The position numbers were made by a program, and so were the translations under genes. The notes below the pieces were generated by a model, which had not been told where the DNA came from, ran no database searches, and saw only the letters and a list, made by a program, of their open reading frames with translations. From a virus: a stretch of DNA of 41,638 nucleotides. Below, piece after piece: positions 20,254-41,638 of this stretch (positions are counted from its first letter, which is position 1; every line of letters starts with the position of its first letter). The stretch lies in UHGV virus genome UHGV-0109010. One strand, given 5' to 3'.

Positions 20254-20416
20254 GCCATCACAAAAGCCATTCCCTACAGAGTGGCTTTGGTAATGGCTTA
20301 TACCCTACACGGGATAACTTAACTGATATCCCTTTTAACGGATAAACGGAGCCAACAATGGCAGAGAATGTCGGCATTATGGCAGTTAAATTTGGATAAA
20401 TCGGAGATTAGTACAT

Positions 20417-20767: not shown

Positions 20768-20783
20768 TAATAATTCTCAACTG

Positions 20784-20853: not shown

Positions 20854-20892
20854 ATACCCGCGAAAAATGAAATTTAACCAGGAGTGCCGCAT

Positions 20893-21378: not shown

Positions 21379-21391
21379 AAATCATCGAATC

Positions 21392-23125: not shown

Positions 23126-23283
23126 AATCACTAATTGCTGATGTTATCGGGTTGGCTGGTTTTGGCCTGCTTACGTGCGGGTTTTACCTGCAGTTTGGTA
23201 TGGCTCCGGCTCTGATGCTGTCCGGCGGTTTACTGCTGGTGGGCGCACTGGCTATGGCCAGAAGGGGGACGCGTGCTGCTTGA
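23122..23283 (+). CDS. Small predicted membrane protein (53 aa) between terminase and portal
   Basis: Manual translation [53 protein letters not shown], two hydrophobic segments; ATGA overlap with TerL stop. Confidence 0.45.
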
Positions 23284-25094: not shown

Positions 25095-25104
25095 AGGAAA
25101 CATC

Positions 25105-26334: not shown

Positions 26335-26358
26335 TTAGTCTTTTTACGTAATACAGCA

Positions 26359-26402
26359 CGCCGCGTAATGCGGTTTTTTTGTGCCCGCGTTCTGGCGGGC
26401 AC
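26359..26402 (+). terminator. Two hairpins after the capsid gene (weak terminator CCGC-GTAAT-GCGG + T7, then 8-bp stem GTGCCCGC/GCGGGCAC)
   Basis: Read directly; likely partial terminator / mRNA stabiliser after the highly expressed capsid gene. Confidence 0.45.
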
Positions 26403-26412
26403 AGGAGGTTTT

Positions 26413-26736
26413 ATGCTGTTAAAAATGGAAGAGATTAAGCTTCAGCTCCGTCTGGATGATGATTTCTCTGATGAAGATGAGTTGCTTGAACTGCTTGGTA
26501 AGGCCGCTCAGAGTCGTACGGAAAACTTCCTTAACCGTAAGTTGTATGCAACCGCAGATGACAGGCCTGCGGATGATCCTGATGGGCTTGTGATATCTGA
26601 TGATGTGAAGCTGGCGCTTCTGCTACTTGTCAGCCATTTCTACGAAAACCGCTCAACGGTTACAGACGTTGAGAAAATGGAGTTGCCAATGAGTTTTAAC
26701 TGGTTGGTTGTTCCTTATCGCCTTATACCACTATGA
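26413..26736 (+). CDS. Head-tail connector protein (gp6-like)
   Basis: About 107 aa acidic protein after capsid; SD AGGAGG. Confidence 0.7.
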   Translation: MLLKMEEIKLQLRLDDDFSDEDELLELLGKAAQSRTENFLNRKLYATADDRPADDPDGLVISDDVKLALLLLVSHFYENRSTVTDVEKMELPMSFNWLVVPYRLIPL

Positions 26737-27143
26737 AAATTCGTCAGGCGCAGACCAGCGCAACCTACATTCTGCCGGACCCCGGCGAACTGAATAAACG
26801 CGTCCTGATCCGCCAGCGGGTGGATATGCCCGCGGATAACTTTGGCGTGGAGCCTCAATACCCGGTTGCGTTCCGGGCATGGGCGAAGGTTATCCAGACC
26901 AGTGCCACCACCTGGCAGGAAACCGCGCAGACCGGAGACGCCATCACCCATTACATCACCATTCGTTACCGCCGGGGGATCACCGCTGATTATGAGGTGG
27001 TCTGCGGTGACAGTGTGTACCGGGTGAAACGTCAGCGCGATCTGAACGGAGCGCGGCGCTTTCTGCTGCTGGAGTGTACGGAGCTGGGCGAATGTAGGCA
27101 GAGTCACGGAGGCAACAATGACGACTTCCTTTTTGCACGTTGA
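26733..27143 (+). CDS. Head closure / head-tail adaptor protein
   Basis: Size and position in head-completion block. Confidence 0.65.
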   Translation: MKIRQAQTSATYILPDPGELNKRVLIRQRVDMPADNFGVEPQYPVAFRAWAKVIQTSATTWQETAQTGDAITHYITIRYRRGITADYEVVCGDSVYRVKRQRDLNGARRFLLLECTELGECRQSHGGNNDDFLFAR

Positions 27144-27624
27144 TTTTCAGCAGCCCGCGGAGATGCGCTTTAACCGCGCCCATGTCCGGCGGGCGTTTGT
27201 CACGATTGGTCAGCGTCATATGCGTGATGCCCGTCGGCTGGTGATGCGCCGTGCGCGGTCGGCACCGGGTGAAAACCCCGGTTATCAGACCGGACGCCTG
27301 GCTCGCTCAATTGGTTACATGGTACCCAGAGCCAGTAAACATCGCCCTGGTTTTATGGCACGTATAGCCCCTAACCAGCGTAATGGAGAGGGAAACCGCC
27401 GTATCACCGGTGATTTTTATCCGGCTTTTTTGTTCTATGGCGTGAGGCGAGGGGCAAAGCGTCGTCGCGGCCATCATCGTGGTGCATCCGGTGGCAGCGG
27501 CTGGCGACTGGCTCCACGTAATAACTTCATGGTGGAAACTCTTGAAAAGAACCGCAGCTGGACACGCTATTTTCTGGCGCGGGAATTGCGTAAATCACTG
27601 AAGCCGGAGCGACGACACAGATGA
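27118..27624 (+). CDS. HK97 gp10-family head-tail joining protein
   Basis: Basic 168-aa protein in head-tail joining block. Confidence 0.6.
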   Translation: MTTSFLHVDFQQPAEMRFNRAHVRRAFVTIGQRHMRDARRLVMRRARSAPGENPGYQTGRLARSIGYMVPRASKHRPGFMARIAPNQRNGEGNRRITGDFYPAFLFYGVRRGAKRRRGHHRGASGGSGWRLAPRNNFMVETLEKNRSWTRYFLARELRKSLKPERRHR

Positions 27625-28181
27625 AACTGACGCCCGTTATTGCTGCACTGCGTGCCCGCTGTCCGTATTTTGAAAACCGGGTGGCAGGCGCGGCACAGTT
27701 CAAAAATCTGCCGGAGGTCGGAAAGCTGAGACTCCCGGCGGCGTATGTGGTACCGGGTGATGACTCTCCGGGAGAAAACAAAAGCCAGACCGACTACTGG
27801 CAGGAGCTGAAAGAGGGCTTCTCCGTGGTTGTCATACTGAGTAACGGGCGTGATGAGCGCGGTCAGTTTGCCTCGTATGATGTGGTGGACGATGTCCGGC
27901 AGATGCTCTTTAAGGCTCTGCTGGGCTGGAACCCGGAAGCGTGTGGTAACCCGATTACCTATGACGGCGGCACGCTGCTGGATCTGAATCGTCATGAGCT
28001 GATTTATCAGTTCGATTTTTCGGTCATCAGCGAGCTGACTGAAGACGATACCCGCCAGCAGGATGATCTGAACAGTCTGGATGAACTGCAAACGCTGGCG
28101 ATTGATGTTGATTATCTCGAGCCCGGTAACGGGCCTGACGGCGATATCGAACATCACACCGAAATAACCCTTCCTTCCTGA
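27621..28181 (+). CDS. Tail completion / tail terminator-like protein (Mu-like module)
   Basis: 186 aa immediately upstream of sheath gene block. Confidence 0.55.
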   Translation: MKLTPVIAALRARCPYFENRVAGAAQFKNLPEVGKLRLPAAYVVPGDDSPGENKSQTDYWQELKEGFSVVVILSNGRDERGQFASYDVVDDVRQMLFKALLGWNPEACGNPITYDGGTLLDLNRHELIYQFDFSVISELTEDDTRQQDDLNSLDELQTLAIDVDYLEPGNGPDGDIEHHTEITLPS

Positions 28182-28189
28182 GGATCCTC

Positions 28190-28360
28190 ATGTTTGTCAA
28201 ACCTGTTAAAGGGCGGTCAGTGCCTGACCCTGCCCGCGGCGACCTTTTGCCCGCCGAAGGGCGAAATGTTGACGAGAACAACTACTGGCTGCGCCGTGAA
28301 GCAGCGGGTGATATCCGGCGCGTGAATAAAAAGGTGAATACCGATGACGATAAGCTTTAA
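28190..28360 (+). CDS. Small conserved phage protein preceding tail sheath (56 aa)
   Basis: Manual translation MFVKPVKGRSVPDPARGDLLPAEGRNVDENNYWLRREAAGDIRRVNKKVNTDDDKL; short gene in the position seen before Mu-like sheath genes. Confidence 0.45.
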   Translation: MFVKPVKGRSVPDPARGDLLPAEGRNVDENNYWLRREAAGDIRRVNKKVNTDDDKL

Positions 28361-29840
28361 CACCATTCCGTCGAATACGCTGGTTCCGTTGTTTTATGCG
28401 GAAATGGATAACCAGGCGGCGAATACTGCACAGGACAGCGGAGCATCGCTGCTGATTGGTCATGCCAATAACGGTGCAGAGATTGTTGCCAACAGTCTGG
28501 TACTGATGCCGTCGGCAGACTATGCACGCCAGATTTGTGGTGCGGGAAGTCAGCTGGCGCGTATGGTCGAGGCTTATCGCCAGACCGACCCGTTTGGCGA
28601 GCTGTATGTGATTGCCGTTCCTGAATCCACAGGCGCGGCGGCAACAGTTACGCTGACGGTGACCGGGGCAGCAACCGAAACCGGCACGGTGAATGTTTAT
28701 GTGGGACGTACCCGCGTGCAGGCACCGGTGACCAACGGCGATAACGTCGCGACGATTGCCAGCAGTATCAAAGATGCCATCAATGCCGTTCCGGCCCTGC
28801 CGTTTACGGCCTCATCTTCGGCTGGTGTGGTTACATTGACCGCTCGCCATAAGGGGCTTTGCGGGAATGAAATTCCTGTCAGCCTCAATTACTACGGCTT
28901 CGGTGGGGGCGAAGTGCTGCCAGCGGGCGTACAGATTGCCGTGGCGACGGGGACCGCCGGAACGGGCGCTCCGGTTCTCACCGGCGCGGTGGCTGCAATG
29001 GCGGATGAGCCGTTTGATTATATCGGTCTGCCGTTCAACGACACGGCCTCTGTTAACACGCTGGTGACCGAGATGAACGATACCAGCGGTCGCTGGAGCT
29101 ATGCGCGTCAGCTGTATGGTCATGTGTATACGGCAAAGGCCGGCACACTGTCAGAACTGGTGAACGCAGGTGACCAGTTTAACCAGCAGCACATCACCCT
29201 GGCGGGGTACGAAAAAGAGACCCAGACGCCTGCCGACGAGCTGGCAGCCAGCCGTACCGCCCGCGCAGCGGTGTTTATCCGCAACGATCCGGCACGTCCC
29301 ACGCAGACCGGTGAGATGGTGGGTATGCTGCCTGCGCCGAAGGGGAAACGGTTCACGATGACCGAACAACAGACCCTGCTGTCTCATGGCGTGGCAACGG
29401 CGTATGTCGAAAGCGGGGTACTGCGCATTCAGCGTGATGTCACCACGTACAGGAAAAACGCTTACGGGGTTGCGGATAACAGCTACCTCGACAGTGAGAC
29501 ACTGCATACCAGCGCGTATGTACTGCGCAAACTGAAATCCGTCATTACCAGTAAGTACGGGCGTCACAAGCTTGCCAGTGACGGTACCCGCTTTGGTCCC
29601 GGTCAGGCGATTGTCACCCCGGCGGTGATCAAAGGGGAACTGCTGGCAACCTACCGTCAGCTTGAGCGTGCGGGGATCGTGGAAAACTACGAACTGTTTA
29701 AGCAGTACCTGGTTGTGGAGCGTGATGCCAGCGATCCGAACCGCCTGAACACGCTGTTCCCGCCTGACTATGTTAACCAGTTGCGTGTCTTTGCCGTGGT
29801 TAACCAGTTCCGTCTTCAGTATTCAGAGGAGTCTGCATAA
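28344..29840 (+). CDS. Tail sheath protein (Mu gpL-like), 498 aa
   Basis: Size, composition and position followed by tube, chaperone and tape measure genes. Confidence 0.85.
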   Translation: MTISFNTIPSNTLVPLFYAEMDNQAANTAQDSGASLLIGHANNGAEIVANSLVLMPSADYARQICGAGSQLARMVEAYRQTDPFGELYVIAVPESTGAAATVTLTVTGAATETGTVNVYVGRTRVQAPVTNGDNVATIASSIKDAINAVPALPFTASSSAGVVTLTARHKGLCGNEIPVSLNYYGFGGGEVLPAGVQIAVATGTAGTGAPVLTGAVAAMADEPFDYIGLPFNDTASVNTLVTEMNDTSGRWSYARQLYGHVYTAKAGTLSELVNAGDQFNQQHITLAGYEKETQTPADELAASRTARAAVFIRNDPARPTQTGEMVGMLPAPKGKRFTMTEQQTLLSHGVATAYVESGVLRIQRDVTTYRKNAYGVADNSYLDSETLHTSAYVLRKLKSVITSKYGRHKLASDGTRFGPGQAIVTPAVIKGELLATYRQLERAGIVENYELFKQYLVVERDASDPNRLNTLFPPDYVNQLRVFAVVNQFRLQYSEESA

Positions 29841-30196
29841 TGGCCCGTATCGGGGGAACCTGTTATTTCAAAATTGACGGTCAGCAGCTATCGCTGACCG
29901 GCGGCATTGAGGTGCCCATGAACAGGACGGTCAATGATGACATCATCGGCCTGGACGGTTCAGTGGACCGCAAGGAAACTCACCGTGCGCCTTATGTCAA
30001 AGGGACCTTCAAGGTGCCGAAGAATTTTCCGGTGAACAAAATCACCTCGTCTGATGAGATGACAATCACTGCCGAGCTGGCGAACGGTCAGGTCTATGTA
30101 CTGTCGTCTGCCTGGCTGCACGGCGAAGCGAACCATAATGCCGAAGAAGGCACGGTTGATCTTGAGTTCCACGGTGAAGAAGGGGATTACCAGTAA
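29840..30196 (+). CDS. Tail tube protein (Mu gpM-like)
   Basis: 118 aa immediately after sheath. Confidence 0.8.
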   Translation: MARIGGTCYFKIDGQQLSLTGGIEVPMNRTVNDDIIGLDGSVDRKETHRAPYVKGTFKVPKNFPVNKITSSDEMTITAELANGQVYVLSSAWLHGEANHNAEEGTVDLEFHGEEGDYQ

Positions 30197-30465
30197 TGAA
30201 AGAGCTTGAGTTAAAGAAACCGATTACCGCTCATGGCGAGACACTCTCCGTACTGGAGTTTGATGAGCCCACCGGGAAAGATGTCCGCGAGCTGGGATAT
30301 CCCTACCAGATGAATCAGGATGAGTCCGTCAGACTTCTGGCGCATGTGGTATCGAAATACATCGTGCGGCTGGCGAAAGTGCCGCAAAGCTCTGTCGACC
30401 AGATGTCTCCGGCAGACCTGAATGCAGCGGCGTGGCTTGTGGCCGGTTTTTTCCTCCAGGCCTGA
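30196..30465 (+). CDS. Tail assembly chaperone (G-like), upstream frame
   Basis: 89-aa acidic protein between tube and tape measure; contains slippery site near 3' end. Confidence 0.75.
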   Translation: MKELELKKPITAHGETLSVLEFDEPTGKDVRELGYPYQMNQDESVRLLAHVVSKYIVRLAKVPQSSVDQMSPADLNAAAWLVAGFFLQA

Positions 30466-30614
30466 CGGCTGAATACCTCACTGATCGCTTCTTTGACTGC
30501 GCCAGTTACTGGCGCATTAATCCTTTCGAATTGCTGAATATGCCGATCAGTGAAATTCCCTTACTGGTCAGTCAGGCAAACAGGATAGAGCAGGAGAAAC
30601 GCACACATGGCTGA
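30432..30614 (+). CDS. Tail assembly chaperone -1 frameshift extension (GT-like), expressed as fusion with 30196..30453
   Basis: ORF in -1 frame overlapping 3' end of the chaperone gene and ending at the tape-measure start. Confidence 0.65.
   Translation: MACGRFFPPGLTAEYLTDRFFDCASYWRINPFELLNMPISEIPLLVSQANRIEQEKRTHG
30447..30453 (+). promoter_or_regulatory. Programmed -1 ribosomal frameshift slippery heptamer T TTT TTC
   Basis: 0-frame codons GGT TTT TTC; -1 frame continues as the 30432..30614 ORF. Confidence 0.65.
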
Positions 30615-32442
30615 ATTTGAGCTTAAGGCGTTGATCACCGGTGTCGACAGGCTTTCTCCGGCGCTGTCGAAAATGCAAAAGAAAATCCGGGGATTTAAAC
30701 GCCAGGCGGAAGAAGCGTCACAGGGTGGGCTGGCGCTTGGTGGCGGACTGGCAGCGGGTCTGACGCTTTCCCTGAAATCTTATGCCGATCAGGAAAACGC
30801 CGCCACCGGGCTGAAAGTCGCCATGATGGATGCGAACGGCGAGGTTGGAAAAAGCTTTCAGGACATCAATAAATTGGCTATTGGCCTGGGTAACCAGCTA
30901 CCCGGTACAACGGCTGATTTCCAGAACATGATGCAGATGCTGGTGCGTCAGGGGATCCCAGCAGAAAACATTCTGGGTGGTGTGGGTAAAGCGACAGCTT
31001 ATCTTGCGGTACAACTGAAAAAAACACCGGAATCGGCAGCCGAGTTTGCTGCAAAGATGCAGGATGCTACCGGAACGGCGTCAGAAGACATGATGGGGCT
31101 GTTCGACACTATCCAGAAAGCGTTTTATCTGGGCGTTGACGATACCAACATGTTGTCCTTCTTCACTAAAACCAGTTCTGTTCTGAAGATGGTGAATAAG
31201 GACGGTCTTCAGGCTGCACAGAGCCTTGCCCCTATCAGCGTCATGATGGATCAGATGGGGATGAACGGGGAGTCGGCAGGTAATGCCCTGCGAAAAGTTA
31301 TTCAGTCCGGATTAAGCGTTAAGAAAATCAGGGACGTCAATAAAGTCATGGCCCGCCAGAAACTCGGAGTGCAGCTCGATTTTACTGACGGCAAAGGGAG
31401 TTTTGGCGGTCTTGATAACATGTTCAGGCAACTGGCAAAGCTGCGAAAACTGACCGACGTTAAGCGAACAGGTGTACTTAAGGCAATATTTGGTGATGAT
31501 GCCGAAACCCTTCAGGTGGTCAATGCACTAATCGATAAAGGAAAGGATGGCTACGATCAGATCCAGCAGAAGATGAATAAACAGGCCAGCCTGAATAAAC
31601 GTGTTCAGGCCCAGCTTGGTACGCTGTCCAACCTGTGGGAGGCAATGACGGGGACCGCAACTAACGGCCTTGCGGCTATTGGCGGCGCATTTTCTGGTGA
31701 CGCCAAAAATATCACGCAATGGCTGGGGGAGTTGGGGGAGAAATTCACGAAGTTTGCGGATGAAAATCCCCGGGTTATTCGCGGCGTCGTCGGGCTTGCT
31801 GCCGGTCTTGCGATTCTGAAACTGGGATTGATGGGCGTTGGCGGTGCCATCAGTATTGTCAGCAGGATCATGTCGATGACGCCGATTGGCATGATTGCGA
31901 CGGCGATAGCCCTGGCTGCGGGATTAATTATCACTAACTGGGATGTTGTCGGACCTTATTTTAAGAAACTCTGGGAAACCATTAGTCCTTATTTTGAGGC
32001 TGGCTGGGAACTTCTGAAGAAGGTTTTTGCCTGGTCGCCGCTGGGGATGGTGATCAATAACTGGGGACCGGTTGTTAAGTGGTTTCAGGATATGTGGGAT
32101 AAGCTGAAGCCGATTATTGAATGGTTTACCGACAGTTCCGGTGACACGGTCGATGCCATTAACTCTGCGCAGTGGGGCGCGGGTGCTTATGATGCTTATG
32201 GGACGGGAATACCGGCGCGGGGATACAAACCTTATCCGGCGGTAGATCTGGCTCAGTCAAACAACGCCTCCGGTGCCACAGGCCCAAATCCCTTCATGAT
32301 TAACAAAGCTTCTGCGCCAAAAGTTGATGGTGAGATCAAGGTCTCTTTTGTGAATTCGCCTCCGGGTATGCGGGTTATGGAAACGCGATCCAGCGGTTTT
32401 GATGTCAGCCATGATGTTGGCTATACGCGCTTTGGCAGGTAA
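30607..32442 (+). CDS. Tail tape measure protein (611 aa)
   Basis: Long Ala/Gly-rich protein with TM segments after chaperone genes. Confidence 0.9.
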   Translation: MAEFELKALITGVDRLSPALSKMQKKIRGFKRQAEEASQGGLALGGGLAAGLTLSLKSYADQENAATGLKVAMMDANGEVGKSFQDINKLAIGLGNQLPGTTADFQNMMQMLVRQGIPAENILGGVGKATAYLAVQLKKTPESAAEFAAKMQDATGTASEDMMGLFDTIQKAFYLGVDDTNMLSFFTKTSSVLKMVNKDGLQAAQSLAPISVMMDQMGMNGESAGNALRKVIQSGLSVKKIRDVNKVMARQKLGVQLDFTDGKGSFGGLDNMFRQLAKLRKLTDVKRTGVLKAIFGDDAETLQVVNALIDKGKDGYDQIQQKMNKQASLNKRVQAQLGTLSNLWEAMTGTATNGLAAIGGAFSGDAKNITQWLGELGEKFTKFADENPRVIRGVVGLAAGLAILKLGLMGVGGAISIVSRIMSMTPIGMIATAIALAAGLIITNWDVVGPYFKKLWETISPYFEAGWELLKKVFAWSPLGMVINNWGPVVKWFQDMWDKLKPIIEWFTDSSGDTVDAINSAQWGAGAYDAYGTGIPARGYKPYPAVDLAQSNNASGATGPNPFMINKASAPKVDGEIKVSFVNSPPGMRVMETRSSGFDVSHDVGYTRFGR

Positions 32443-32502
32443 TGAAAAATTAATCTGTTAATGAGTCCCACTCCGGTGGGATTTTTTATGTACGGAGTTT
32501 AT

Positions 32503-33831
32503 ATGACGTGGAAAGACAGACTTCAGGACGCGTCATTTCGAGGTGTGCCGTTTAAGGTTGAAGAAGAAAGTGCGGGAACCGGCCGTCGTGTGGAAACACA
32601 CGAATATCCGAACCGCGACAAACCCTATACCGAAGATCTGGGAAAAGTCACTTTCCGCCCGTCCATCACAGCTTATGTGGTGGGAGATGACTGCTTTGAC
32701 CAGCGCGATCGCCTGATTGAAGCGCTGAATAAACCCGGTCCCGGCACGCTTGTCCATCCGACTTACGGTGAGCTGAAAGTCTGTGTTGACGGGGAAGTTC
32801 GGGTCAGCACATCGAAAAGTGAAGGACGTATTGTCCGCTTTGACCTGAAGTTTGTCGAAGCGGGAGAACTCTCTTACCCCACATCAGGTGCGGCGACGGC
32901 GCAGACGCTGATGTCATCCTGTTCTGCACTGGATGACTGCATCAGTGACAGTTTCAGTGGTTTCAGTATCGATGGCGTGGCAGATTTTGTGCAGAACGAC
33001 GTCGTCGGTAATGCCGGCACAATGCTTGGGTATATTTCTGATGCGATGAAAGTGGTGGATTCTGCCGTATCGGATGCCGCCAGGCTGTTGCAGGGGGATA
33101 TCTCGGTACTTCTGCCGCCGCCATCGTCAGGCAAAAATTTCGTTGAGCTGGTGCAGAAAATGTGGCGTACCGGGAAACGCCTTTATGGTAACGCCAGCGA
33201 CCTGGTCACCATGATCAAAACGCTTTCCGGTGTCAGCCTCGGCAGCGATCTGCAACCGCGCGGCGTCTGGAAAACGGACAGTAAAACCACCGCCACGGCG
33301 ACGCAGCAGCGTAACGTGGTTGCCAGCACCCTTCGTACGACCGCAATCAGCGAAGCGGCGTATGCCGTCACCCGATTGCCTGCGCCAACAACTTCCGCGG
33401 TGATGCAGAATGCCGCAGTGGGGCAGGCAACAACACCCGCGCAGAGCACTGGCTGGCCTTCCGTCACGCATCCGGCACTGAACAATGCACCGGCGGTGAA
33501 AAACACGGTTGACCTGCCGACGTGGGAAGAACTGACTGACATTCGCGACACACTGAATACGGCAATTGATAAGGAGTTGTCCCGTACAACCAGCGATGCG
33601 CTGTTTCTGGCGCTGCGCCGGGTGAAAGCAGATCTGAATGCGGATATCAACACGCGCCTTGAACAGTCTGCACGGATCATTCAGCGCACACCGGATGAAG
33701 TTTTACCCGCGCTGGTGCTGGCGGCGACCTGGTTTGATAACGCGGCGCGTGACGCGGACATTATCCGGCGTAATGCCATTACGCATCCCGGCTTTGTGCC
33801 GGTGATCCCTCTGAAGGTGCCAGTGCAATGA
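32503..33831 (+). CDS. DNA circularisation protein N-like (Mu gpN-like) tail/baseplate protein
   Basis: Follows tape measure; SD GGAG; Mu-like order N-P-V-W-J. Confidence 0.7.
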   Translation: MTWKDRLQDASFRGVPFKVEEESAGTGRRVETHEYPNRDKPYTEDLGKVTFRPSITAYVVGDDCFDQRDRLIEALNKPGPGTLVHPTYGELKVCVDGEVRVSTSKSEGRIVRFDLKFVEAGELSYPTSGAATAQTLMSSCSALDDCISDSFSGFSIDGVADFVQNDVVGNAGTMLGYISDAMKVVDSAVSDAARLLQGDISVLLPPPSSGKNFVELVQKMWRTGKRLYGNASDLVTMIKTLSGVSLGSDLQPRGVWKTDSKTTATATQQRNVVASTLRTTAISEAAYAVTRLPAPTTSAVMQNAAVGQATTPAQSTGWPSVTHPALNNAPAVKNTVDLPTWEELTDIRDTLNTAIDKELSRTTSDALFLALRRVKADLNADINTRLEQSARIIQRTPDEVLPALVLAATWFDNAARDADIIRRNAITHPGFVPVIPLKVPVQ

Positions 33832-34907
33832 ACGACAATGTCACGCTACGGGTAAATGGCCGGGAGTGGAATGGCTGGACATCGGTGCGCATCGGTGCCG
33901 GTATTGAACGGCTGGCGCGGGATTTCAGTGTGGAGATCACCCGCCAGTGGCCGGGAGATGAGGGTATCACCACGCTTCAGCCGCGCATTAAAAACGGTTC
34001 AAAAGTGGAAGTGCTGATTGGTGATGAGCTGGTGATCACCGGCTGGGTGGAGGCGACGCCCGTTCGTTACGATTCCCGTTCGGTCAGCACCGGTATTGCC
34101 GGACGTAGTCTGACGGCTGACCTGATTGACTGTGCAGCCGAACCGACACAGTTTAACGGACGCTCGCTGGTGCAGATTGCGCAGGCGCTTGCTGCGCCTT
34201 TCGGCATTGAGGTGGTGAACAGCGGTGCGCCGTCGGGTGTTATTCCTGATGTTCAGCCTGATCACGGTGAAACGGTGATTGAGGTAATCAACAAAATACT
34301 CGGTCAGCAGCAGGCACTGGCTTACGACGACCCGCACGGCAGGCTGGTGATTGGCGGTATTGGCTCAACGCGGGCACATACTGCGCTGGTACTCGGGGAA
34401 AACATCCTTTCCTGCGATACGGAGAAGAGTATCCGGGAGCGGTTTTCTGTTTACCAGGTGGCGGGGCAGCGTGCCGGAAACGACGATGATTTCGGTGAGG
34501 CCACCACCACCGCGCTGCGGGCCCGCACAGAGGACGCATTTATTGCCCGTTACCGTCCGATGTATATCAGGCAGACAGGGCAGGCTACGGGGGCAGGCTG
34601 TATTGCGCGTGCTGACTTTGAAGCCCGGCAACGGGCGGCGCGGACGGATGAAACCACCTATGTGGTGCAGGGCTGGCGACAGGGTAACGGTACGCTGTGG
34701 CAGCCCAACCAGCGGGTGATTGTCTTTGATCCGGTCTGTGGTTTCGACAATACCGAACTGCTTGTTTCGGAAGTCACGTTTACTCAGGACCAGAACGGCA
34801 CCCTGACGGAAATCCGTGTCGGCCCACCTGATGCTTATCTGCCTGAACCCGAAGCCCCCGGCGCGCGGAAAAAGAAAAAAGCCAGAGTACAGGAGGACCC
34901 GTTCTGA
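33828..34907 (+). CDS. Baseplate hub protein (Mu gpP-like)
   Basis: 359 aa, position in Mu-like baseplate block. Confidence 0.75.
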   Translation: MNDNVTLRVNGREWNGWTSVRIGAGIERLARDFSVEITRQWPGDEGITTLQPRIKNGSKVEVLIGDELVITGWVEATPVRYDSRSVSTGIAGRSLTADLIDCAAEPTQFNGRSLVQIAQALAAPFGIEVVNSGAPSGVIPDVQPDHGETVIEVINKILGQQQALAYDDPHGRLVIGGIGSTRAHTALVLGENILSCDTEKSIRERFSVYQVAGQRAGNDDDFGEATTTALRARTEDAFIARYRPMYIRQTGQATGAGCIARADFEARQRAARTDETTYVVQGWRQGNGTLWQPNQRVIVFDPVCGFDNTELLVSEVTFTQDQNGTLTEIRVGPPDAYLPEPEAPGARKKKKARVQEDPF

Positions 34908-35455
34908 TGAGGACGATTGAAGCCATGCAGCGACAACTCCTCGGCCTGATTGGGCGGGCAGTGGTGAAAAGCATCAGTGCCGCCACGAAATGTCAGACCG
35001 TGGATGTGTCCCTGATTGCCGGTGAACCCAAAGCCGGGGTTGAACATCTTGAACCCTACGGTTTTACCGCAAGGGCAAACAGCGGTGCGGAAGCGGTGGT
35101 GTTGTTTCCGGATGGCGACCGTTCTCATGCGGTGGTTGTTACGGTGTCGGACCGGCGCTACCGCCTGAAAGGGCTGCAGACGGGTGAGGTGGCTGTCTAT
35201 GACGATCAGGGGCAGTCTGTGACGCTGACCCGGGAGGGGATCGTGGTGGACGGTGCAGGTAAAACGATCACGTTTCGCAATGCGCCCAGAGCACGTTTTG
35301 AAATGGACCTGGAAGTGACCGGACAGGTGAAAGACCTGTGCGACTCCGGCGGTACCACCATGTCAGCGATGCGGCTTGCCTATAACGGGCATCGTCACAG
35401 AGAGAACGGTCAGGGCAGTAACACCGACAAACCTGATAAAGCGATGGAGGCATGA
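34907..35455 (+). CDS. Baseplate spike / assembly protein V (Mu gp45-like)
   Basis: 182 aa, position. Confidence 0.7.
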   Translation: MRTIEAMQRQLLGLIGRAVVKSISAATKCQTVDVSLIAGEPKAGVEHLEPYGFTARANSGAEAVVLFPDGDRSHAVVVTVSDRRYRLKGLQTGEVAVYDDQGQSVTLTREGIVVDGAGKTITFRNAPRARFEMDLEVTGQVKDLCDSGGTTMSAMRLAYNGHRHRENGQGSNTDKPDKAMEA

Positions 35456-35880
35456 TGGAACTGTGGCTGACGGTGAACGGTAAACGCACCTGCGCCAGCG
35501 CACAGCTGGATCCGCTGACCCGCGCCGTGGTGATTTCCCTGTTTACCTGGCGGCGGGCGGAGCCTGATGACAACGCCGATGTCCCGATGGGATGGTGGGG
35601 GGATACCTGGCCTGCGGTACAGAATGACCGTTACGGCTCCCGACTGTGGCTGCTTCAGCGCAGCAAACTGACCAATCAGCTGGTGCAGACGGTAAGGGGG
35701 TATATCCGCGAATGCCTGCAATGGATGATTGATGACGGCGTGGTGTCCCGTATTGATCTGGATATCCGCCGCACCGGGATTAATGAACTGGGTAACAGTA
35801 TCACTCTCTGGCGTCGTGACGGACCGGTAATGATTTCTTTTGATGATCTGTGGAGTGCGATAACGCATGGCGGACAGTGA
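35452..35880 (+). CDS. Baseplate protein W-like (Mu gp46-like)
   Basis: 142 aa, position. Confidence 0.7.
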   Translation: MMELWLTVNGKRTCASAQLDPLTRAVVISLFTWRRAEPDDNADVPMGWWGDTWPAVQNDRYGSRLWLLQRSKLTNQLVQTVRGYIRECLQWMIDDGVVSRIDLDIRRTGINELGNSITLWRRDGPVMISFDDLWSAITHGGQ

Positions 35881-36925
35881 ATTTCAGCGCCCGACGCTGG
35901 CAGAAAATATCAGTATGCTCCGTAACGATTTATTCGCCAGGCTGGACGTCAGCGACACGCTCCGGCGCATGGATGAAGACGTGCGGGCAAAGGTGTATGC
36001 GGCGGCGCTGCATACGGTTTACGGTTACATCGATTATCTGGCAATGAACATGCTGCCTGACCTGTGCGATGAGTCCTGGCTGGCGCGACATGCTGCGATG
36101 AAACGGTGTCCGCGCAAGGGGGCCACGGCTGCCAGCGGGTATATGCGCTGGGAAGGTGTCAGCGATGGCCTGAAGGTGACCGCCGGGAGTGTTATTCAGC
36201 GCGATGACCTGGTGCAGTACACGACAACTGACGATGCAACCAGCTCCGGTGGTGTCCTGCGCGTGCCGATCACTTGCTCAACTACAGGCGCGGTCGGTAA
36301 CGCTGACGACGGTACGGCATTAATCCTGGTCACGCCGGTGAATGGTCTGCCGTCTTCCGGTGTTGCAGATACCCTGACTGGCGGATTTGATACTGAAGAG
36401 CTGGAAACGTGGCGCGCCCGCGTCATTGAGCGGTATTACTGGACGCCTCAGGGCGGGGCTGACGGGGACTATGTCGTCTGGGCTAAAGAAGTGTCAGGCA
36501 TTACCCGTGCATGGACATACCGCCACTGGATGGGAACGGGGACTGTCGGTGTGATGATTGCCAGCAGTGACCTGATTAATCCCATTCCGGAAGAATCAAC
36601 GGAAACGGCGGCAAGACAACACATTGAGCCACTGGCCCCGGTGGCAGGCTCTGATTTGTATGTATTCAGGCCGGTGGCGCATAAAGTGGATTTTCATATC
36701 CGCGTGACGCCGGACACACCGGAAATACGGGCTGCCATCACCGCGGAGTTGCGTTCGTTCCTGCTGCGTGATGGTTATCCGCAGGGAGAACTGAAGGTAT
36801 CGCGTATCAGTGAGGCGATTTCCGGTGCGAACGGGGAATACAGCCATCAGTTGCTTGCACCGGCAGACAATATCTCCATTGCAAAAAATGAACTGGCGGT
36901 TCTGGGGACGATTTCATGGACGTGA
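35867..36925 (+). CDS. Baseplate J-like protein (Mu gp47-like)
   Basis: 352 aa, position. Confidence 0.75.
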
Positions 36926-37500
36926 CAAACGATGATTACATCCGCCTGTTATCGGCACTGTTGCCGCCCGGTCCTGCATGGTCAGCCAGCGATCCGGCGA
37001 TTGCCGGTGCGGCACCTTCATTAACCCGCGTTCATCAGCGTGCGGATGCCCTGATGCGGGAGCTGGATCCGCGCACCACCACTGAACTGATAAACCGCTG
37101 GGAGCGTCTGTGCGGTCTGCCGGATGAATGTATTCCCGCAGGGACACAGACCCTTCGCCAGCGTCAGCAACGGCTGGATGCGAAGGTTAATCTGGCGGGC
37201 GGCATCAATGAGGATTTTTACCTTGCACAGCTTGCTGCCCTGGGCAGACCAGACGCCACTATCACGCGATACGATAAAAGCACGTTCACCTGCTCATCGG
37301 CCTGTACTGACGCAGTGAATGCGCCGGAATGGCGGTATTACTGGCAGGTCAACATGCCAGCCGCCACCAACACCACCTGGATGACATGTGGCGATCCCTG
37401 TGATTCCGCACTGCGTATCTGGGGCGACACCGTTGTCGAGTGCGTGCTTAACAAACTCTGCCCTTCGCATACCTACGTAATTTTTAAATATCCGGAGTAA
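36916..37500 (+). CDS. Tail protein (Mu gp48-like)
   Basis: 194 aa between baseplate J and tail fibre. Confidence 0.65.
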
Positions 37501-37503
37501 TCC

Positions 37504-38208
37504 ATGCATCGTATAGACACGAAAACCGCGCAGAAGGATAAGTTCGGCGCGGGTAAGAACGGTTTTACCCGTGGTAACCCCCAGACCGGCACACCTGCCA
37601 CCGATCTGGATGATGACTACTTTGACATGTTGCAGGAAGAACTTTGTAGCGTGGTGGAGGCCTCCGGTGCCAGCCTGGAGAAAGGGCGGCATGACCAGAT
37701 GCTTACCGCACTTCGTGCGCTGCTGTTAAGCCGCAAGAATCCGTTTGGCGATATCAAATCGGATGGCACTGTGCAAACGGCTCTCGAAAACCTTAGTTTA
37801 GGAGAAGGCTCAGCATTGCCTGTTGGCGTACCTGTTCCGTGGCCTTCAGTCACACCGCCAACAGGCTGGCTGAAATGCAACGGTGCAGCTTTTTCTGCCG
37901 AAGAGTATCCGGAACTGGCAAAAGTTTATCCGACAAATAAATTGCCAGATTTACGCGGCGAATTCATTCGTGGGTGGGATGATGGAAGAGGAATTGATTC
38001 AGGACGGACTCTCCTGTCTGCTCAGGACGGGAGCATTGAGGCACACGGCCATGATTACAATGGGGCCATCTATACTTCTAGCGGTCCTTCCTGGGCTAAT
38101 ACGACGGATGCGGGACACCGGGCATATTCGGGATTTACATCATCATATGGCGGGAGCGAAACCCGTCCACGAAATATTGCATTTAACTATATCGTGAGGG
38201 CTGCATAA
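37504..38208 (+). CDS. Tail fibre protein (receptor-binding)
   Basis: 234 aa Gly/Ser-rich C-terminal region; followed by tail fibre assembly gene. Confidence 0.7.
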
Positions 38209-38807
38209 TGGATAACGCCGTATTAAATAGCGAGCTTATTGCCACGAAGGCGGGGAATATTACTGTTTATAACTATGATGGTGAGACGCGGGAATATATT
38301 TCTGCATCAACTGAATATCTTGCAGTGGGTGTCGGTATTCCAGCATATTCCTGTTTAGACGCTCCTGGTACATCTAAGGCTGGTTATACAATTTGCCGTT
38401 CTGTGGATTTAAAATCATGGGAATATGTGTCAGACCATCGCGGTGAAATCGTCTATAACACCGAAACGGGAGAATCGAAAGAAATCACAGCTCCGGGTGA
38501 TTATCCTGAAAATACAACCACTATCGCCCCGTTAACGCCATACGATAAATGGGATGGTGAAAAATGGGTGACGGATATCAATGCTCAGCACGTAGCGGAA
38601 GTGGAAGCGGCAGAGCAACAGAAATCTGTGCAGCTTCTGTTCGCAAAGGAAAAGATCATTCTTTGGCAGACTGAATTACAGCTGGGAATTATCAGCGACG
38701 AAGATAAAGAAAAACTAATATCTTGGGTGAACTATATCAAAGCTGTTCAGGCAGTAGATACCCAGAAAGCTCACAATATCATCTGGCCTAAAAAACCATT
38801 CATATAA
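38208..38807 (+). CDS. Tail fibre assembly chaperone (Tfa)
   Basis: 199 aa, position after tail fibre; family assigned from order and size. Confidence 0.75.
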   Translation: MDNAVLNSELIATKAGNITVYNYDGETREYISASTEYLAVGVGIPAYSCLDAPGTSKAGYTICRSVDLKSWEYVSDHRGEIVYNTETGESKEITAPGDYPENTTTIAPLTPYDKWDGEKWVTDINAQHVAEVEAAEQQKSVQLLFAKEKIILWQTELQLGIISDEDKEKLISWVNYIKAVQAVDTQKAHNIIWPKKPFI

Positions 38808-38811
38808 ATAA

Positions 38812-38836
38812 ACGCCCCTTATGGGGCGTATTTTGC
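38812..38836. terminator. Bidirectional rho-independent terminator (ACGCCCC-TTAT-GGGGCGT) shared by tfa and the convergent acyltransferase gene
   Basis: Perfect 7-bp stem flanked by A/T runs on both sides; overlaps the acyltransferase stop codon. Confidence 0.7.
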
Positions 38837-39988
38837 TGCTTGCACGTTATTCTTTGGAAGAATTTTATTTGATAAATAATTGGAAAATTTTATCGCGTTA
38901 TCATCAATTAGCAATTTAAAAATTAAAGCTGCAAGTATTGAAGATAATAAAGTGATTGGGAAAGTAATAAGTAAAGACTTTCCGTATGAAACTCCTGCAT
39001 CACCAAGCTTAATTACGATCAAAGAAGATATTGAAGCTATTAATGGAAAATGCACCAGATAAAGAGAGTATGATACATCTCCAAGAAATTTACAGGTTTT
39101 TGTTTTGAATAAATTTGAGATAACTATTGATTTATCAATTGCTATAATAAGAAACATTGAACCAAAGGCTTGAGAAACAATTCTCAAATCAAAGTAAGTT
39201 ATGTCACTGTTATTTATCCAGATACTATGTTCAGTTATAAAATATGGGTATGAACCTAGGTAACATCCTAGTAAAATAAACATAAAGATAATTGTGGTAT
39301 TAATTTTCTTTATATTAACTGAAACATCTGCACAAATCACCCCTAATATAAATCCTATTAGATGACTTGAGCTAAATACCACAATACCTAAAGTATAAAA
39401 AGCAAACCTAATTCTGGTAGTGCAAACTAGTGGGACCAGAACGAGTACAAGAATTGAGCCAACCAATTCGGTGTGAATGGTCCATAATACTGGGTTTAAT
39501 GTTTGAACTCCGTAAAAATATGTACCAATACCCCCTTCCCATACCGCATTCAGTAATGTCATTGTAGTTGGCATCGCTGGGATTACTTGTGATAAAGAGT
39601 ACACTGCAGTTTCTGATGAATGAAATCCAATCGTTGTCATCAGAATAAAGGAAAATATAGTAGATGCAATGGTAGGTATTGCAAGACGTGGGTATCTCTT
39701 GATAATGGATTTAGAGTACCATTCTAGCCCCTTCCCTTTGAAAAAGGGAATCGATAGAACCATTCCACTCAAAACGAAGAAAAGCATTACGGCAAAGTGA
39801 CCATTATATAATATATTAAATGGAGTTTCACTTATGTATTTCTCTCCATAATGATCTATCTGATTTTGAACAAAAACAGATGGTAGAAAGAATTGCATGA
39901 AATGGCTTATTAAAACTATCAAGCAAGCTATACCACGAATACCATCCAGTGCGTGATCTCGGGAAGGCGTCGTTAATTGTTGAACCAT
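38819..39988 (-). CDS. Acyltransferase family 3 integral membrane protein (O-antigen/LPS O-acetyltransferase-like), start at MVQQL with SD GAGGA
   Basis: Multi-TM protein with N-terminal LDGIRGIACLIVLISHF motif typical of acyltransferase-3 (Oac-like); very AT-rich; convergent at prophage right end. Confidence 0.8.
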   Translation of the reverse strand: MVQQLTTPSRDHALDGIRGIACLIVLISHFMQFFLPSVFVQNQIDHYGEKYISETPFNILYNGHFAVMLFFVLSGMVLSIPFFKGKGLEWYSKSIIKRYPRLAIPTIASTIFSFILMTTIGFHSSETAVYSLSQVIPAMPTTMTLLNAVWEGGIGTYFYGVQTLNPVLWTIHTELVGSILVLVLVPLVCTTRIRFAFYTLGIVVFSSSHLIGFILGVICADVSVNIKKINTTIIFMFILLGCYLGSYPYFITEHSIWINNSDITYFDLRIVSQAFGSMFLIIAIDKSIVISNLFKTKTCKFLGDVSYSLYLVHFPLIASISSLIVIKLGDAGVSYGKSLLITFPITLLSSILAALIFKLLIDDNAIKFSNYLSNKILPKNNVQAAKYAP

Positions 39989-40230
39989 CAATTCCTCACA
40001 CATTGTAATAAAGTATTAAAATAAAATAGTAAAAGCAGAATATACAAATACGAAAAGCGGAATTATACTTTACAAGAGTGCTTGATGCTATTGTTTTGTC
40101 GAGATTTATAATCTGATCTTCTGTAGATGTTGTCCTGGCATTGTCCAATCATGATCTATGGGCTGGCTGGCGAACTTTCGATAGTGCGAGTATTGAATGA
40201 TTTCCAGCCGTTACCGATTTTACGTGTTAA

Positions 40231-40479
40231 TTAGTGAACAAACCACTCGTCAGCAGATTCCCAGGTATCTTTCAGAGTCTCCTGAACAAAAGTTTTTGCA
40301 GAATCCTTATCTGCGGTGCGTGTAACAGAAAGGCCATCGTTGCTGGTGGCTTTTACGATCACCTCTACATCGTCATAACGTTTACTGATGCGTCGGGTTA
40401 ATTCTTCCTTTAACGCATCCACAGCACCGGTTGGCATTTTAGTCATTTTTTCTTTGGCTATGCAGATTTCAATACGCAT
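40231..40479 (-). CDS. DinI-family DNA-damage-inducible protein (82 aa)
   Basis: [11 protein letters not shown]...[11 protein letters not shown] matches DinI family N- and C-terminal motifs; two LexA boxes upstream. Confidence 0.85.
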
Positions 40480-40492
40480 AAAAGTCCCTCTA

Positions 40493-40540
40493 TACTGTGT
40501 TTGTATACAGTATTATTTTTAACTGTATGGATAAACAGTG
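40493..40540 (-). promoter_or_regulatory. Two LexA (SOS) boxes CTGT-N8-ACAG (40493-40512 and 40522-40539) overlapping a TTGACA-17-TAAAAA promoter for the dinI-like gene
   Basis: TACTGTGTTTGTATACAGTA and ACTGTATGGATAAACAGT fit the E. coli LexA consensus; -35 TTGACA on minus strand at 40539-40544. Confidence 0.8.
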
Positions 40541-41638
40541 TCAAGAGGTCTTATTTCTGCTCCTTTGGAGCTCTTCAAAACGATTATGTAAAGATTTCGG
40601 ATACAGTTCGGTATATACCTGCCATAGCACGTTTAATGAACGATGCCCTGTAACCTGGGCGACTTCCTCAATACTAAAACCAGCCTCAAATAAGCGACTT
40701 GCCCCTTCTCTACGCAAATCATGGTATCGCAGATCTTTAATACCTAATTTGCTTCTTACCCTCTGGAATCCCGCAGTAACAGAAGTGCTGTTATATGGAA
40801 AAATGAATTCTGATTTTTTGGGTTGTCGTTGGACGATATCCCAGGCTTCCCCAAGCAAGGCTACTTTCATATGGTTGCCTTCCTTTTTACGTGGATCTTT
40901 CCTGTCTCTTACGAGTATGGATTTTTGTTCCTGATCGAGATCCTCCCATCGTAATCGGCATACTTCACCGATTCGCATACATGACCACACAGAAAATTTG
41001 AGGATATCAACGAACGGAATTTTTGAGCATTTATGTGTAGATCGTTGTTGAAGACCTTCAATGAGCATGTCCAGTTCATCAGATGCCGGTCTACGATTAC
41101 GACGATTTGATTTACCAATTAAACCAAGTTTAAGTAGATATGGACGAGCGGCTTTTGCTGGGTTTGATGTGTAATTAATTCCATATACAGGTTTGGCAGC
41201 ATCCAGAACACTACCAAGATAACTAACATCGTGGCTAACTGTAGCTGGACCTGCACCAGCGTTGTTTCTTAGCCTGCAATGTTCAATTACGTCATTTTCT
41301 GTCAGTTCAGATAGTTTGATCGCGGAGATGTCACTATCCATAAGCAGTTCCAGCACATATCTTTTAGTACGGCCTGCTTTACCTCCGGCATTTGGGTCAT
41401 TTAAATATTTGTGTAGTAAGTCACGGACTGTAAGTCCGTCAACTGCATTTGATGATGGAATGCCATATAGATCTAATTCCATCACTTTCTGTGTGCCCCA
41501 TGTTTTGGCATGAGCATGTTTAGGGAATGTTTTGCTTTCCCTGTAAGTGATAACACCTTTTTCTTTGATAATCACATTACAGCGATAGCGTGGTGTGCCA
41601 TCGGATTTTAGTCGTTTCTCTATGTTATAGTACGCCAT
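40541..41638 (-). CDS. Second tyrosine-family site-specific integrase (365 aa; start codon at the very last bases of the window)
   Basis: C-terminal catalytic region with RxxG and HDLRR motifs and a Tyr-containing tail; upstream context not visible. Confidence 0.7.
   Translation of the reverse strand: MAYYNIEKRLKSDGTPRYRCNVIIKEKGVITYRESKTFPKHAHAKTWGTQKVMELDLYGIPSSNAVDGLTVRDLLHKYLNDPNAGGKAGRTKRYVLELLMDSDISAIKLSELTENDVIEHCRLRNNAGAGPATVSHDVSYLGSVLDAAKPVYGINYTSNPAKAARPYLLKLGLIGKSNRRNRRPASDELDMLIEGLQQRSTHKCSKIPFVDILKFSVWSCMRIGEVCRLRWEDLDQEQKSILVRDRKDPRKKEGNHMKVALLGEAWDIVQRQPKKSEFIFPYNSTSVTAGFQRVRSKLGIKDLRYHDLRREGASRLFEAGFSIEEVAQVTGHRSLNVLWQVYTELYPKSLHNRFEELQRSRNKTS

Follow-up and report, generated by a model that had tools for sequence, protein, structure and literature searches.

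The stretch of DNA analysed here (the window; 41,638 nucleotides of UHGV virus genome UHGV-0109010) carries two tyrosine integrases, one beside the tRNA gene argU near its left end and one at its right end, next to a dinI-like gene, and the question is why both lie in one stretch and where the element ends. An earlier note, made from the sequence alone, offered two answers: an argU phage with two integrases, whose argU-type attR lies just outside, or a second integrative element abutting the prophage. The note is borne out in its gene calls and LexA boxes, in finding no argU attR, and in placing the boundary outside the window, whereas neither of its two answers stands as given. Very probably, positions 40161-41638 form the lysogeny-end module of a phage that targets dusA, of the mEp460/SKA5/Phi1720a-02 type, with its boundary at dusA, and lie in an argU/dusA mosaic (Table 1).

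Table 1. Features of the window, from left to right.
Feature	Position	Strand	Remarks
fimZ, argU, intD-type integrase; early, Q and lysis region of argU lambdoid prophage	1-19720	+	100% to reference argU prophage
tRNA-Arg argU	875-951		
intD-type integrase	967-2130	-	
Junction patch, third source	19721-20297	+	577 bp; 99.4% to a P22-like prophage in MS14385, a related strain
Insert in junction patch	19830-20245		416 bp; absent from both parent prophages
HNH endonuclease, P27-type terminase, HK97-type head and Mu-like contractile tail genes of dusA-type prophage	20298-38818	+	
Variable cargo slot: Acyl_transf_3 acyltransferase and upstream region	38819-40160	-	AT-rich, 30-33% GC
Conserved tail of dinI module	40161-40230	.	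Homology edge
DinI-like gene	40231-40479	-	82 aa; Pfam DinI PF06183
Integrase-dinI spacer with SOS-type promoter	40480-40540	-	61 bp; LexA boxes, -35, -10, RBS
RBS GAGGGA	40490-40485	-	
Predicted LexA box 1, TACTGTGTTTGTATACAGTA	40493-40512		17/20 to consensus; over start region
-10 AAAAAT/TAAAAA	near 40515-40521	-	
Predicted LexA box 2, AACTGTATGGATAAACAGTG	40521-40540		15/20 to consensus; in -35/-10 spacer
-35 TTGACA	40544-40539	-	Overlaps integrase TGA stop
Tyrosine integrase, DusA-associated integrase family	40541-41638	-	365 aa; ORF, PF00589 and motifs

The integrase at the right end

The earlier note had the second tyrosine integrase start at the very end of the window, and its ATG is indeed the last codon there (the reverse complement of the final three bases). 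A Pfam profile search identifies PF00589 (E=1.1e-20), and the catalytic R-H-R-H and Tyr residues are assigned, by motif rather than by structural alignment, as R222 (MR222IGE), H306 and R309 (H306DLR309), H332 (GH332RS), and Y342 (WQVY342). The nearest sequence matches in the PDB are XerA and a XerC-like protein, with E values of ~1e-5. Rci shufflon recombinases are given as the nearest characterised relatives of the DusA-associated family, and in the mEp460 record, the depositor's annotation is INT_Rci (cd00796).

DusA-associated integrases (DAIs) have been described as a family in which the integrase gene adjoins the 5′ end of dusA (PMC4482086; Farrugia et al. 2015, NAR 43:4547); the inserted element supplies dusA with a new 5′ end, its insertion results in imperfect direct repeats, and Escherichia is already among the well-represented genera (PMC4482086). 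The window integrase resembles these proteins as a tyrosine recombinase with the RHRH/Y residues, in the position of its gene beside the dusA 5′ end, in its prophage cargo, and in the surrogate dusA 5′ end and imperfect direct repeats, and no difference of substance was found. The protein WP_000332264.1, a neighbour of dusA, is 100% identical to it. Among 52 homologous integrase loci in GTDB species representatives of other species (44-99% identity; Escherichia to Vibrio, Shewanella, and one Hyphomicrobiales genome), a full-length, divergently oriented dusA stands immediately upstream in 34, and about 17 are without an adjoining dusA, short contigs accounting for some of these. This linkage agrees with PMC4482086, and the integrase is assigned to the DAI family. 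The assignment covers the recombinase fold and catalytic residues, adjacency to dusA (from identical copies), linkage to dusA in other genera, and integration at the dusA 5′ end, the last judged by comparing the ends of the reference prophage with the empty K-12 site.

dusA as the expected right boundary

Positions 39900-41638 are matched over their whole length in six complete genomes (five at 100.0%, one at 99.9%), and in the two whose wider context was read, NZ_AP022098.1 and ETEC H10407, 88 bp separate the integrase ATG from the start of dusA, which is divergent. The integrase-dinI module occurs in 706 genomes, and a contiguous dinI-int-dusA arrangement in 731 complete E. coli genomes. In public assemblies, the exact acyltransferase gene is fully flanked at six places, all six of which read tail, acyltransferase, dinI, int, dusA, pspG, qorA, dnaB, and in shorter contigs with this gene nothing other than dusA follows int. 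An IMG/VR contig continues for 239 nt beyond the window end, directly into dusA. Because dusA is the next gene wherever the recovered sequence continues beyond the integrase, the right boundary is expected at the dusA attachment site, in keeping with the earlier idea of a boundary outside the window. The window itself stops at the integrase ATG, and dusA with its attachment site is placed beyond it by inference from identical copies; the arrangement in the source could differ past 41638, because the hybrid join described below was found in none of the collections searched.

The ends of the reference dusA prophage suggest how this boundary arises. A 105-nt fragment of the host dusA 5′ end lies at the far prophage end and a diverged, phage-borne 5′ end lies beside the integrase gene; comparison with the empty K-12 site shows that the two share the core ATGCTCGA, and one attL/attR pair encloses everything, including the integrase and dinI. 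The phage-type dusA 5′ end carries the sequence ATGCACGATAATCATGAAACACAA. The DAI would recombine an attP carrying the surrogate dusA 5′ end with a site ~100 bp inside the host dusA, so that the integrase gene would come to lie at the tail-gene end of the prophage, divergent from the reconstituted dusA. The native right boundary would then be the dusA attachment site ~190 bp beyond the window, a distance made up of the 88-bp spacer and the ~105-nt phage-borne dusA 5′ end, up to the ATGCTCGA crossover. Integration 100 bp into dusA has been shown experimentally for the Stx2 phage Phi1720a-02 (PMC6328086).

The same module is found in free phages. mEp460 (JQ182728), SKA5 (OR670062), and Phi1720a-02 (KF030445) are 96.9-97.8% identical in nucleotide sequence over 40161-41638 (Phi1720a-02 over 40227-41638), and in deposited phage genomes generally, where the module is 96.5-97.8% identical, the order runs from tail through cargo, dinI, int, and the dusA′ fragment to the early genes. 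mEp460 and SKA5 share with the window both this gene order and the two-box LexA promoter, and phages of the mEp460/SKA5/Phi1720a-02 type share the tail-end integrase beside an attP with a dusA 5′ fragment. They differ from it in the cargo between tail fibre and dinI, which is an acyltransferase in the window and an invertase in SKA5 and is lacking in mEp460. In place of the Mu-like contractile tail, mEp460 has lambda-like side tail fibres, and the window module, unlike the phage copies, is joined to the left half of an argU prophage. The integrase-dinI pair is thus the known, already-described end module of E. coli dusA-inserting phages.

On the argU side, the claim that no copy of the argU 3′ end occurs in 40004-40540 extends to the whole window: an exact-word search of both strands found no repeat of argU or its 3′ flank longer than 10 nt anywhere else in it. 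The direct repeat at 40004-40230 on which the earlier note had let its interpretation hinge is likewise absent, and no argU-type attR of the kind that marks the DLP12-like right boundary was found within the window. The argU attR of the reference strains was located between envY and ompT, ~47 kb from argU, as a repeat at least 47 nt long.

The dinI-like gene and its promoter

The claimed dinI-like gene is present; its product matches PF06183 over profile positions 1-63 of 63 (E=1.1e-19; 70.9 bits, gathering cutoff 24.2) and is 46% identical to K-12 DinI. The C-terminal helix is conserved between the two proteins as ETWESAD(D/E)WFV, the K-12 DinI sequence being ETWESADDWFV, and this negatively charged helix of DinI has been implicated in RecA binding (Voloshin et al. 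2001, as cited in PMC3121763). Against the chromosomal DinI equivalog model NCBIfam NF007893, the protein scores 73 bits, below the cutoff of 111; it is a prophage DinI-like paralogue, not an orthologue of chromosomal DinI. E. coli DinI (b1061) is alike in length (81 vs 82 aa), in this degree of identity, in its acidic C-terminal helix, and in its LexA-boxed promoter, but its gene has one LexA box, whereas the window gene has two, is phage-borne, and scores below the equivalog level.

By its sequence, the dinI-like gene has its own sigma-70 promoter in the spacer directly downstream of the integrase gene. The two LexA boxes that the earlier note saw overlapping this promoter fit the consensus TACTG(TA)5CAGTA better than any other site in the 41.6-kb window, the next best reaching 14/20, and CTGT-N8-ACAG occurs three times in the window against 0.5 expected, two of the three lying 28 bp apart at these boxes. 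Both predicted boxes thus have the CTGT-N8-ACAG palindrome over core promoter elements by which promoters of the LexA regulon are recognised. Phages mEp460 and SKA5 agree with the window base for base in the two boxes, in the -35 hexamer, and across the remaining spacer, and Rosenbergiella int-dinI loci have a single LexA box at the equivalent place. By analogy, LexA would bind these boxes and repress the gene in the lysogen, and DNA damage would derepress it as part of the SOS response, as the rules for LexA boxes and the Gifsy dinI operons suggest; the 82-aa product may, like DinI, bind RecA filaments through its acidic C-terminal helix and modulate RecA co-protease activity. The gene is probably best regarded as a common SOS-controlled accessory gene.

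The dinI homologues of the Gifsy prophages are LexA-controlled and have been shown experimentally to be SOS-induced (PMC3121763; Lemire et al. 2011). Those operons have the order dinI-antirepressor-irsA, carry one LexA box, and follow the replication genes, whereas the window gene has two boxes, lies at the integrase end, and is followed by neither a small antirepressor ORF nor irsA. All three frames from 40230 to 40004 are broken by stops, with no Gifsy-type small antirepressor gene 3′ of the dinI-like gene, and the only ORFs there are of 50 aa (TTG start, in AT-rich cargo DNA) and 29 aa. A further difference is that the dusA prophage has a CI-like S24-peptidase repressor, and direct induction through RecA is therefore expected. 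No terminator was found on the minus strand between the dinI-like gene and the acyltransferase gene, and SOS read-through into the latter is possible, though unsupported. Tum of phage 186 is grouped with the Gifsy operons among the closest known systems.

A window composed of two prophages

Comparison with complete genomes divides the window into two long, mismatch-free halves. Positions 20298-41638 (21.3 kb) match the dusA prophage of NZ_AP022098.1 with zero mismatches, and positions 1-19720 (19.7 kb) match, also with zero mismatches, the argU prophage of the same reference strains, in whose complete genomes the two parent prophages lie ~977 kb (~1 Mb) apart in direct orientation. The window is a mosaic of an argU prophage on the left, a 577-bp P22-like patch, and a dusA-type prophage on the right, and this composition is very probably the reason why it holds two integrases. 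The join occupies a slot of variable content that follows the lysis cassette and precedes the HNH/terminase genes, with YbgA/HTH genes at ~17 kb on its left and the P27 terminase gene at ~21 kb on its right, and the identity shared at its two joints is ~130 bp and ~70 bp. An exact-protein look-up of a 61-aa ORF of the patch returned P22-like contexts only. A 50-aa ORF at the joint is a linker ubiquitous in lambdoid prophages (9,333 blocks of the collection index), and so is uninformative. An inversion between the two prophages was considered and rejected, both parents being directly oriented in the reference genomes.

The join itself was not recovered elsewhere. Megablast searches of 5,426 complete E. 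coli genomes, with 16500-24500 and 18900-20900 as queries, returned no match covering at least 80%, and the exact 171-nt joint between patch and dusA prophage is absent from IMG/VR and the JGI metagenomes. A close natural parallel is the KplE1/CPS-53-like argW prophage of E. coli LSC52 (NZ_CM137002.1), in which DLP12-like early, Q, and lysis genes are followed by HNH, P27 terminase, HK97 head, and Mu-like tail genes, then an acyltransferase gene and a tail-end integrase; it differs from the window in its single integrase (IntS), the lack of dinI, other cargo at the lysis/HNH slot, and an identity of ~97%, not 100%.

Alternative explanations

It is very improbable that the integrase-dinI pair is a small integrative element in its own right, lying against the prophage. 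Homology with many phages does break at ~40161, and the dinI-plus-box segment (40161-40547) occurs with other integrases in ~240 phage records, including Stx phages (251 phage records match the segment in all, 10 over the whole module), which suggests that the dinI-plus-box and integrase parts are separately mobile modules on an evolutionary timescale. In mEp460, SKA5, PhiR40_1, and others, however, the pair sits between the tail genes and attP with the early genes; no att-like repeat was found between the pair and the tail genes, and in the window, as in dusA prophages, the pair is 100% continuous with 21.3 kb of packaging, head, tail, and acyltransferase genes. A single argU-integrated phage with two integrases and an argU-type attR just past the window is improbable as well, if less extremely so: the window ends at the integrase ATG and a tail-end integrase is normal in such phages, but every recovered copy of the module that continues past the integrase runs into dusA or, in phages, into an attP with the dusA′ fragment, and lambda-like tail genes, appY, and ompT come before the attR of the parent argU prophage.

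For the argU/dusA mosaic, the question is then how the join arose. A genuine recombination event has close to an even chance: the join would be that of a tandem duplication of ~0.94-0.98 Mb between the two directly oriented prophages, over the arc from 4.26 Mb to 0.56 Mb in K-12 coordinates, or a circular dusA-type phage would have inserted into the argU prophage by RecA or Red homologous recombination in the lysis region, in which case attP (dusA′) and the early genes of that phage, with Panacea, PrtN, and exonuclease genes, would follow the window in place of dusA. The Exo/Bet/Gam functions of the left prophage could drive recombination at short homologies, natural prophages pair this early/lysis region with the HNH-P27-HK97-Mu-like module (as in the LSC52 argW prophage, ~97% over the junction), and the ORF at the joint is an ordinary lambdoid linker; yet the join is present in no other genome, the third-party patch calls for two events or an unsampled parental allele, and megabase duplications are unstable. 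In its specific form, this reading is more tentative, somewhat short of an even chance: recombination through the ~130-bp and ~70-bp identities, in a clone carrying argU, dusA, and P22-like prophages, would have produced a locked-in element whose two integrases differ in specificity, the second att site of each being absent from the window. The fused element would be the joint of a ~1-Mb chromosomal duplication or a phage genome captured in another prophage. Doubtful, though to be taken seriously, is a chimera of assembly or scaffolding, in which a contig crosses between separate argU, dusA, and P22-like prophages, all three of which strain MS14385 carries, by way of short stretches that they have in common in the lysis-to-packaging region, the integrase-dinI pair truly lying at dusA, ~1 Mb from argU. 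The 100.000% identity of the halves to two prophages ~977 kb apart in the same genomes, the match of the patch to a third resident-type prophage, and the lack of the join in any complete genome or other collection searched favour such an artefact, as does the direct orientation of the parents, between which a simple reciprocal exchange would break the chromosome up into two circles instead of giving a viable inversion. The shared identity is short, however, so that two consecutive wrong turns would be needed, and the join falls exactly in the slot where natural lambdoid mosaics switch modules.

Implications for annotation

For annotation, the second integrase marks the end of a dusA-type phage and poses no problem of a missing argU attR, which resolves the apparent anomaly. 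Should the fusion be real, it would be a concrete case of resident prophages serving as recombination substrates across ~1 Mb, though of modest added value, since such events are known in E. coli and Salmonella. The mosaic origin of the window is not visible from the sequence alone and was seen by comparison with reference genomes.

For boundary calling, the integrase of such phages is to be expected at the tail end, beside a variable cargo slot, and windows can fuse parts of two prophages. The slot sits between the tail-fibre assembly gene and dinI, and in ETEC H10407 and phage SKA5 it holds a DNA invertase and an alternative fibre cassette, not an acyltransferase. Other dusA prophages, like Stx and further lambdoid phages, are homologous to the window from ~40161 onwards, and a 72-bp remnant, annotated in RefSeq as ‘capsid protein’, lies at 40163-40234 (+).

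Integrase family and integration target

The right end of the window carries, as an earlier note had read it, a dinI-like gene and a second tyrosine integrase that starts at the window end; both open reading frames and their Pfam matches agree (table). Read on the minus strand, the window's last three bases are the integrase ATG, and the RHRH/Y residues can be recognized by motif as R222, H306, R309, H332, and Y342. The protein is a member of the DusA-associated integrase (DAI) family described by Farrugia et al. in 2015 (PMC4482086).

Features of the right end, the mosaic segments, and related sites
Feature	Position	Strand	Length	Match or source
Acyltransferase ORF	38819-40003	-	394 aa	Acyl_transf_3 (Pfam)
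Variable cargo slot	38819-40160
dinI-like ORF	40231-40479	-	82 aa	Pfam DinI, E=1.1e-19
dinI with LexA boxes	40161-40547
'Capsid protein' pseudogene fragment	40163-40234	+	72 bp	RefSeq annotation in identical genome
int-dinI spacer	between integrase and dinI-like ORFs		61 bp
Integrase ORF	40541-41638	-	365 aa	Pfam Phage_integrase, E=1.1e-20
Left segment	1-19720			argU prophage of NZ_AP022098.1, no mismatch
Patch	19721-20297		577 bp	P22-like prophage of related strain MS14385, 99.4% identity
Insert in patch	19830-20245		416 bp
ORF in patch insert	20033-20218		61 aa
Right segment	20298-41638			dusA prophage of NZ_AP022098.1, no mismatch
Exo, Bet, Gam genes	3608-5372	-		Red-type (lambda)
S24-peptidase repressor ORF	6250-7005	-		argU prophage
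CTGT-N8-ACAG match in repressor ORF	6414-6429

In a megablast search of 5,426 complete E. coli genomes with 39900-41638 as the query, six genomes matched at full length (five at 100.0% and one at 99.9%), and at least 80% of the query was matched in 706 genomes, with homology starting at ~40161. The 'capsid protein' fragment, which overlaps the dinI stop, lies just within the conserved side of this break. In WP4-S18-ESBL-09 (NZ_AP022098.1, 100% identical), 88 bp separate the integrase ATG from the start of a divergent dusA, an arrangement also found in ETEC H10407, whose int-dinI module is 99.9% identical. The ~37.5-kb prophage of NZ_AP022098.1 bears a 105-nt dusA 5' fragment at its far end. 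When both prophage ends were compared with the empty K-12 site, the host dusA 5' fragment was found to end at ...CACCAATGCTCGA, followed by phage DNA; beside int, the phage contributes a diverged version of the first ~105 dusA nucleotides, which meets host dusA at ...CTCCTATGCTCGACTGGACGG. A dinI-int-dusA query reached at least 80% coverage in 731 genomes; the module is therefore at dusA in essentially every complete genome having it. Assemblies with an identical acyltransferase all read tail, acyltransferase, dinI, int, dusA, pspG, qorA, dnaB where the flank suffices, and an IMG/VR provirus extends 239 nt past the window end, into dusA. Sequence and comparison show the family and target of the integrase and place the native boundary ~190 bp past the window.

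Among GTDB species representatives, full-length dusA lies immediately upstream of the integrase homologue in 34 of 52 loci (44-99% identity), which range over Escherichia, Kosakonia, Morganella, Xenorhabdus, Proteus, Serratia, Vibrio, Shewanella, Idiomarina, Aeromonas, and one Hyphomicrobiales genome. For about 17 of the 52 homologues (mostly Xenorhabdus and Serratia; 58-65% identity), the 2.5 kb upstream contain no dusA, which suggests sub-lineages with other targets; such targets have been noted for some family members (PMC4482086).

The int-dinI module in phages

The earlier note had also considered that the int-dinI pair might be a second integrative element abutting the prophage. This option was rejected: the pair is a well-known module, contiguous with phage genes in deposited phage genomes from the tail side to the attP side. 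The 1,478-bp module (40161-41638) occurs at 96.5-97.8% identity in SKA5, Lys8385Vzw, mEp460, PhiR40_1/47_1/55_1, mEp460_4F5, and phiSTEC1575-Stx2k, among others, and Phi1720a-02 matches at 96.9% identity over 96% of the query. SKA5 and mEp460 share the order tail fibres, optional cargo, dinI, int; in SKA5, int is followed by a small dusA 5' fragment ORF (attP) and then by early-left genes. For Phi1720a-02, experiments have demonstrated integration 100 bp into dusA at a short conserved core, with a phage-encoded 5' end restoring the gene (PMC6328086).

Of 251 matching phage records, most, among them many from Stx-converting phages, have dinI and its boxes apart from this int, and the homology then ends just beyond the -35 hexamer; dinI with its promoter therefore forms one evolutionary module and int another, and the two co-travel in dusA-type phages. 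Among loci of the DAI family, only two, both from Rosenbergiella, have dinI after int, each with one LexA box at the corresponding position.

The dinI promoter and its predicted role

The window has three CTGT-N8-ACAG palindromes where 0.5 are expected, and the int-dinI spacer holds two of them, 28 bp apart. These two score 17/20 and 15/20 against TACTG(TA)5CAGTA, the top two scores window-wide, which bears out the two LexA boxes first noticed at this promoter. On the coding strand, the spacer reads TTGACA (-35, overlapping the integrase TGA stop), box 2, AAAAAT/TAAAAA (-10), box 1, GAGGGA, and ATG, which by its sequence is a classic LexA-repressed promoter layout; comparison supports both this architecture and its conservation. 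In K-12, chromosomal dinI is preceded by a single box, just 5' of the RBS, whereas the present gene has two. The third match (CTGTGTCGTCGTACAG) is probably due to chance, because its centre is GC-rich.

The dinI-like product shares 46% identity with DinI and has retained the acidic helix at the C terminus. From established knowledge, LexA would repress the gene in the lysogen, RecA-stimulated LexA cleavage would derepress it, and the product would bind RecA filaments as DinI does. Gifsy prophages carry dinI homologues that are induced LexA-dependently and precede an antirepressor, and induction was not measurably affected when dinI itself was deleted (PMC3121763). In contrast to the Gifsy arrangement, no antirepressor ORF was found downstream of the dinI-like gene; given this, and the S24-type repressor of the dusA prophage, the gene is best regarded as an SOS modulator that stands alone and whose benefit is uncertain.

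A hybrid of two prophages

No word of argU or its 3' flank longer than 10 nt recurs elsewhere in the window, so that the lack of an argU 3' end copy, first remarked for 40004-40540, extends to the whole. In NZ_AP022098.1, the argU attR takes the form of a direct repeat, at least 47 nt long (argU positions 907-953), at ~3,647,560-3,647,606, between envY and ompT and ~47 kb from argU, which places appY and ompT inside the argU element. In the six genomes matching 39900-41638, the left part of the window is an argU-resident lambdoid prophage ~1 Mb away, and base-by-base comparison resolved the window into three segments. The cause of the two integrases is a two-prophage hybrid; the earlier suggestion of two integrases and a boundary outside the window is right, and a single argU phage, one of its alternatives, is unlikely. 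If the hybrid is real and host DNA flanks it, neither integrase has a second att site within the window.

The patch between the halves is unlike both parents, with its insert replacing 30 bp in each. Identity shared by the window, the argU prophage, and the P22-like sequence spans at most ~130 bp at the left joint, and 70 bp are shared at the right. The join falls between Rz/a 50-aa ORF and an HNH endonuclease, a slot with differing cargo across natural prophages. The Exo, Bet, and Gam encoded in the argU half could promote recombination on such short homologies.

Neither the 5,426 complete E. coli genomes nor any context of the patch ORF shows the exact join, and IMG/VR and JGI metagenomes lack the joint between patch and dusA prophage. 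The two parents are in direct orientation in the reference genomes, which rules out an inversion and makes the joint, running from the argU side into the dusA side, one such as a duplication or an excised circle would give; one reciprocal exchange alone would divide the chromosome into two. Three origins are left: the joint of a tandem duplication, the circular genome of a dusA-type phage that recombined into the argU prophage, or an assembly chimera.

A tail-end integrase is the normal layout for phages of the type of the natural LSC52 argW prophage (NZ_CM137002.1 1,028,821-1,075,407), which, like the window, combines DLP12-like early/lysis genes with a module of HNH, P27 terminase, HK97 head, and Mu-like tail, and which ends in acyltransferase, intS, and tRNA-Arg, with torI (excisionase) at the opposite end.

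The cargo slot lies between the tail-fibre assembly gene and dinI, with no terminator-like site on the minus strand between acyltransferase and dinI. In H10407 and SKA5 the slot holds a DNA invertase, whereas the window carries the acyltransferase, which has no NCBIfam match and may, by analogy with serotype-converting phages, be an O-antigen or surface-polysaccharide acetylase. The gene is AT-rich (30-33% GC, against 49% for the window), and this version is present in only 6 of the 5,426 complete genomes.
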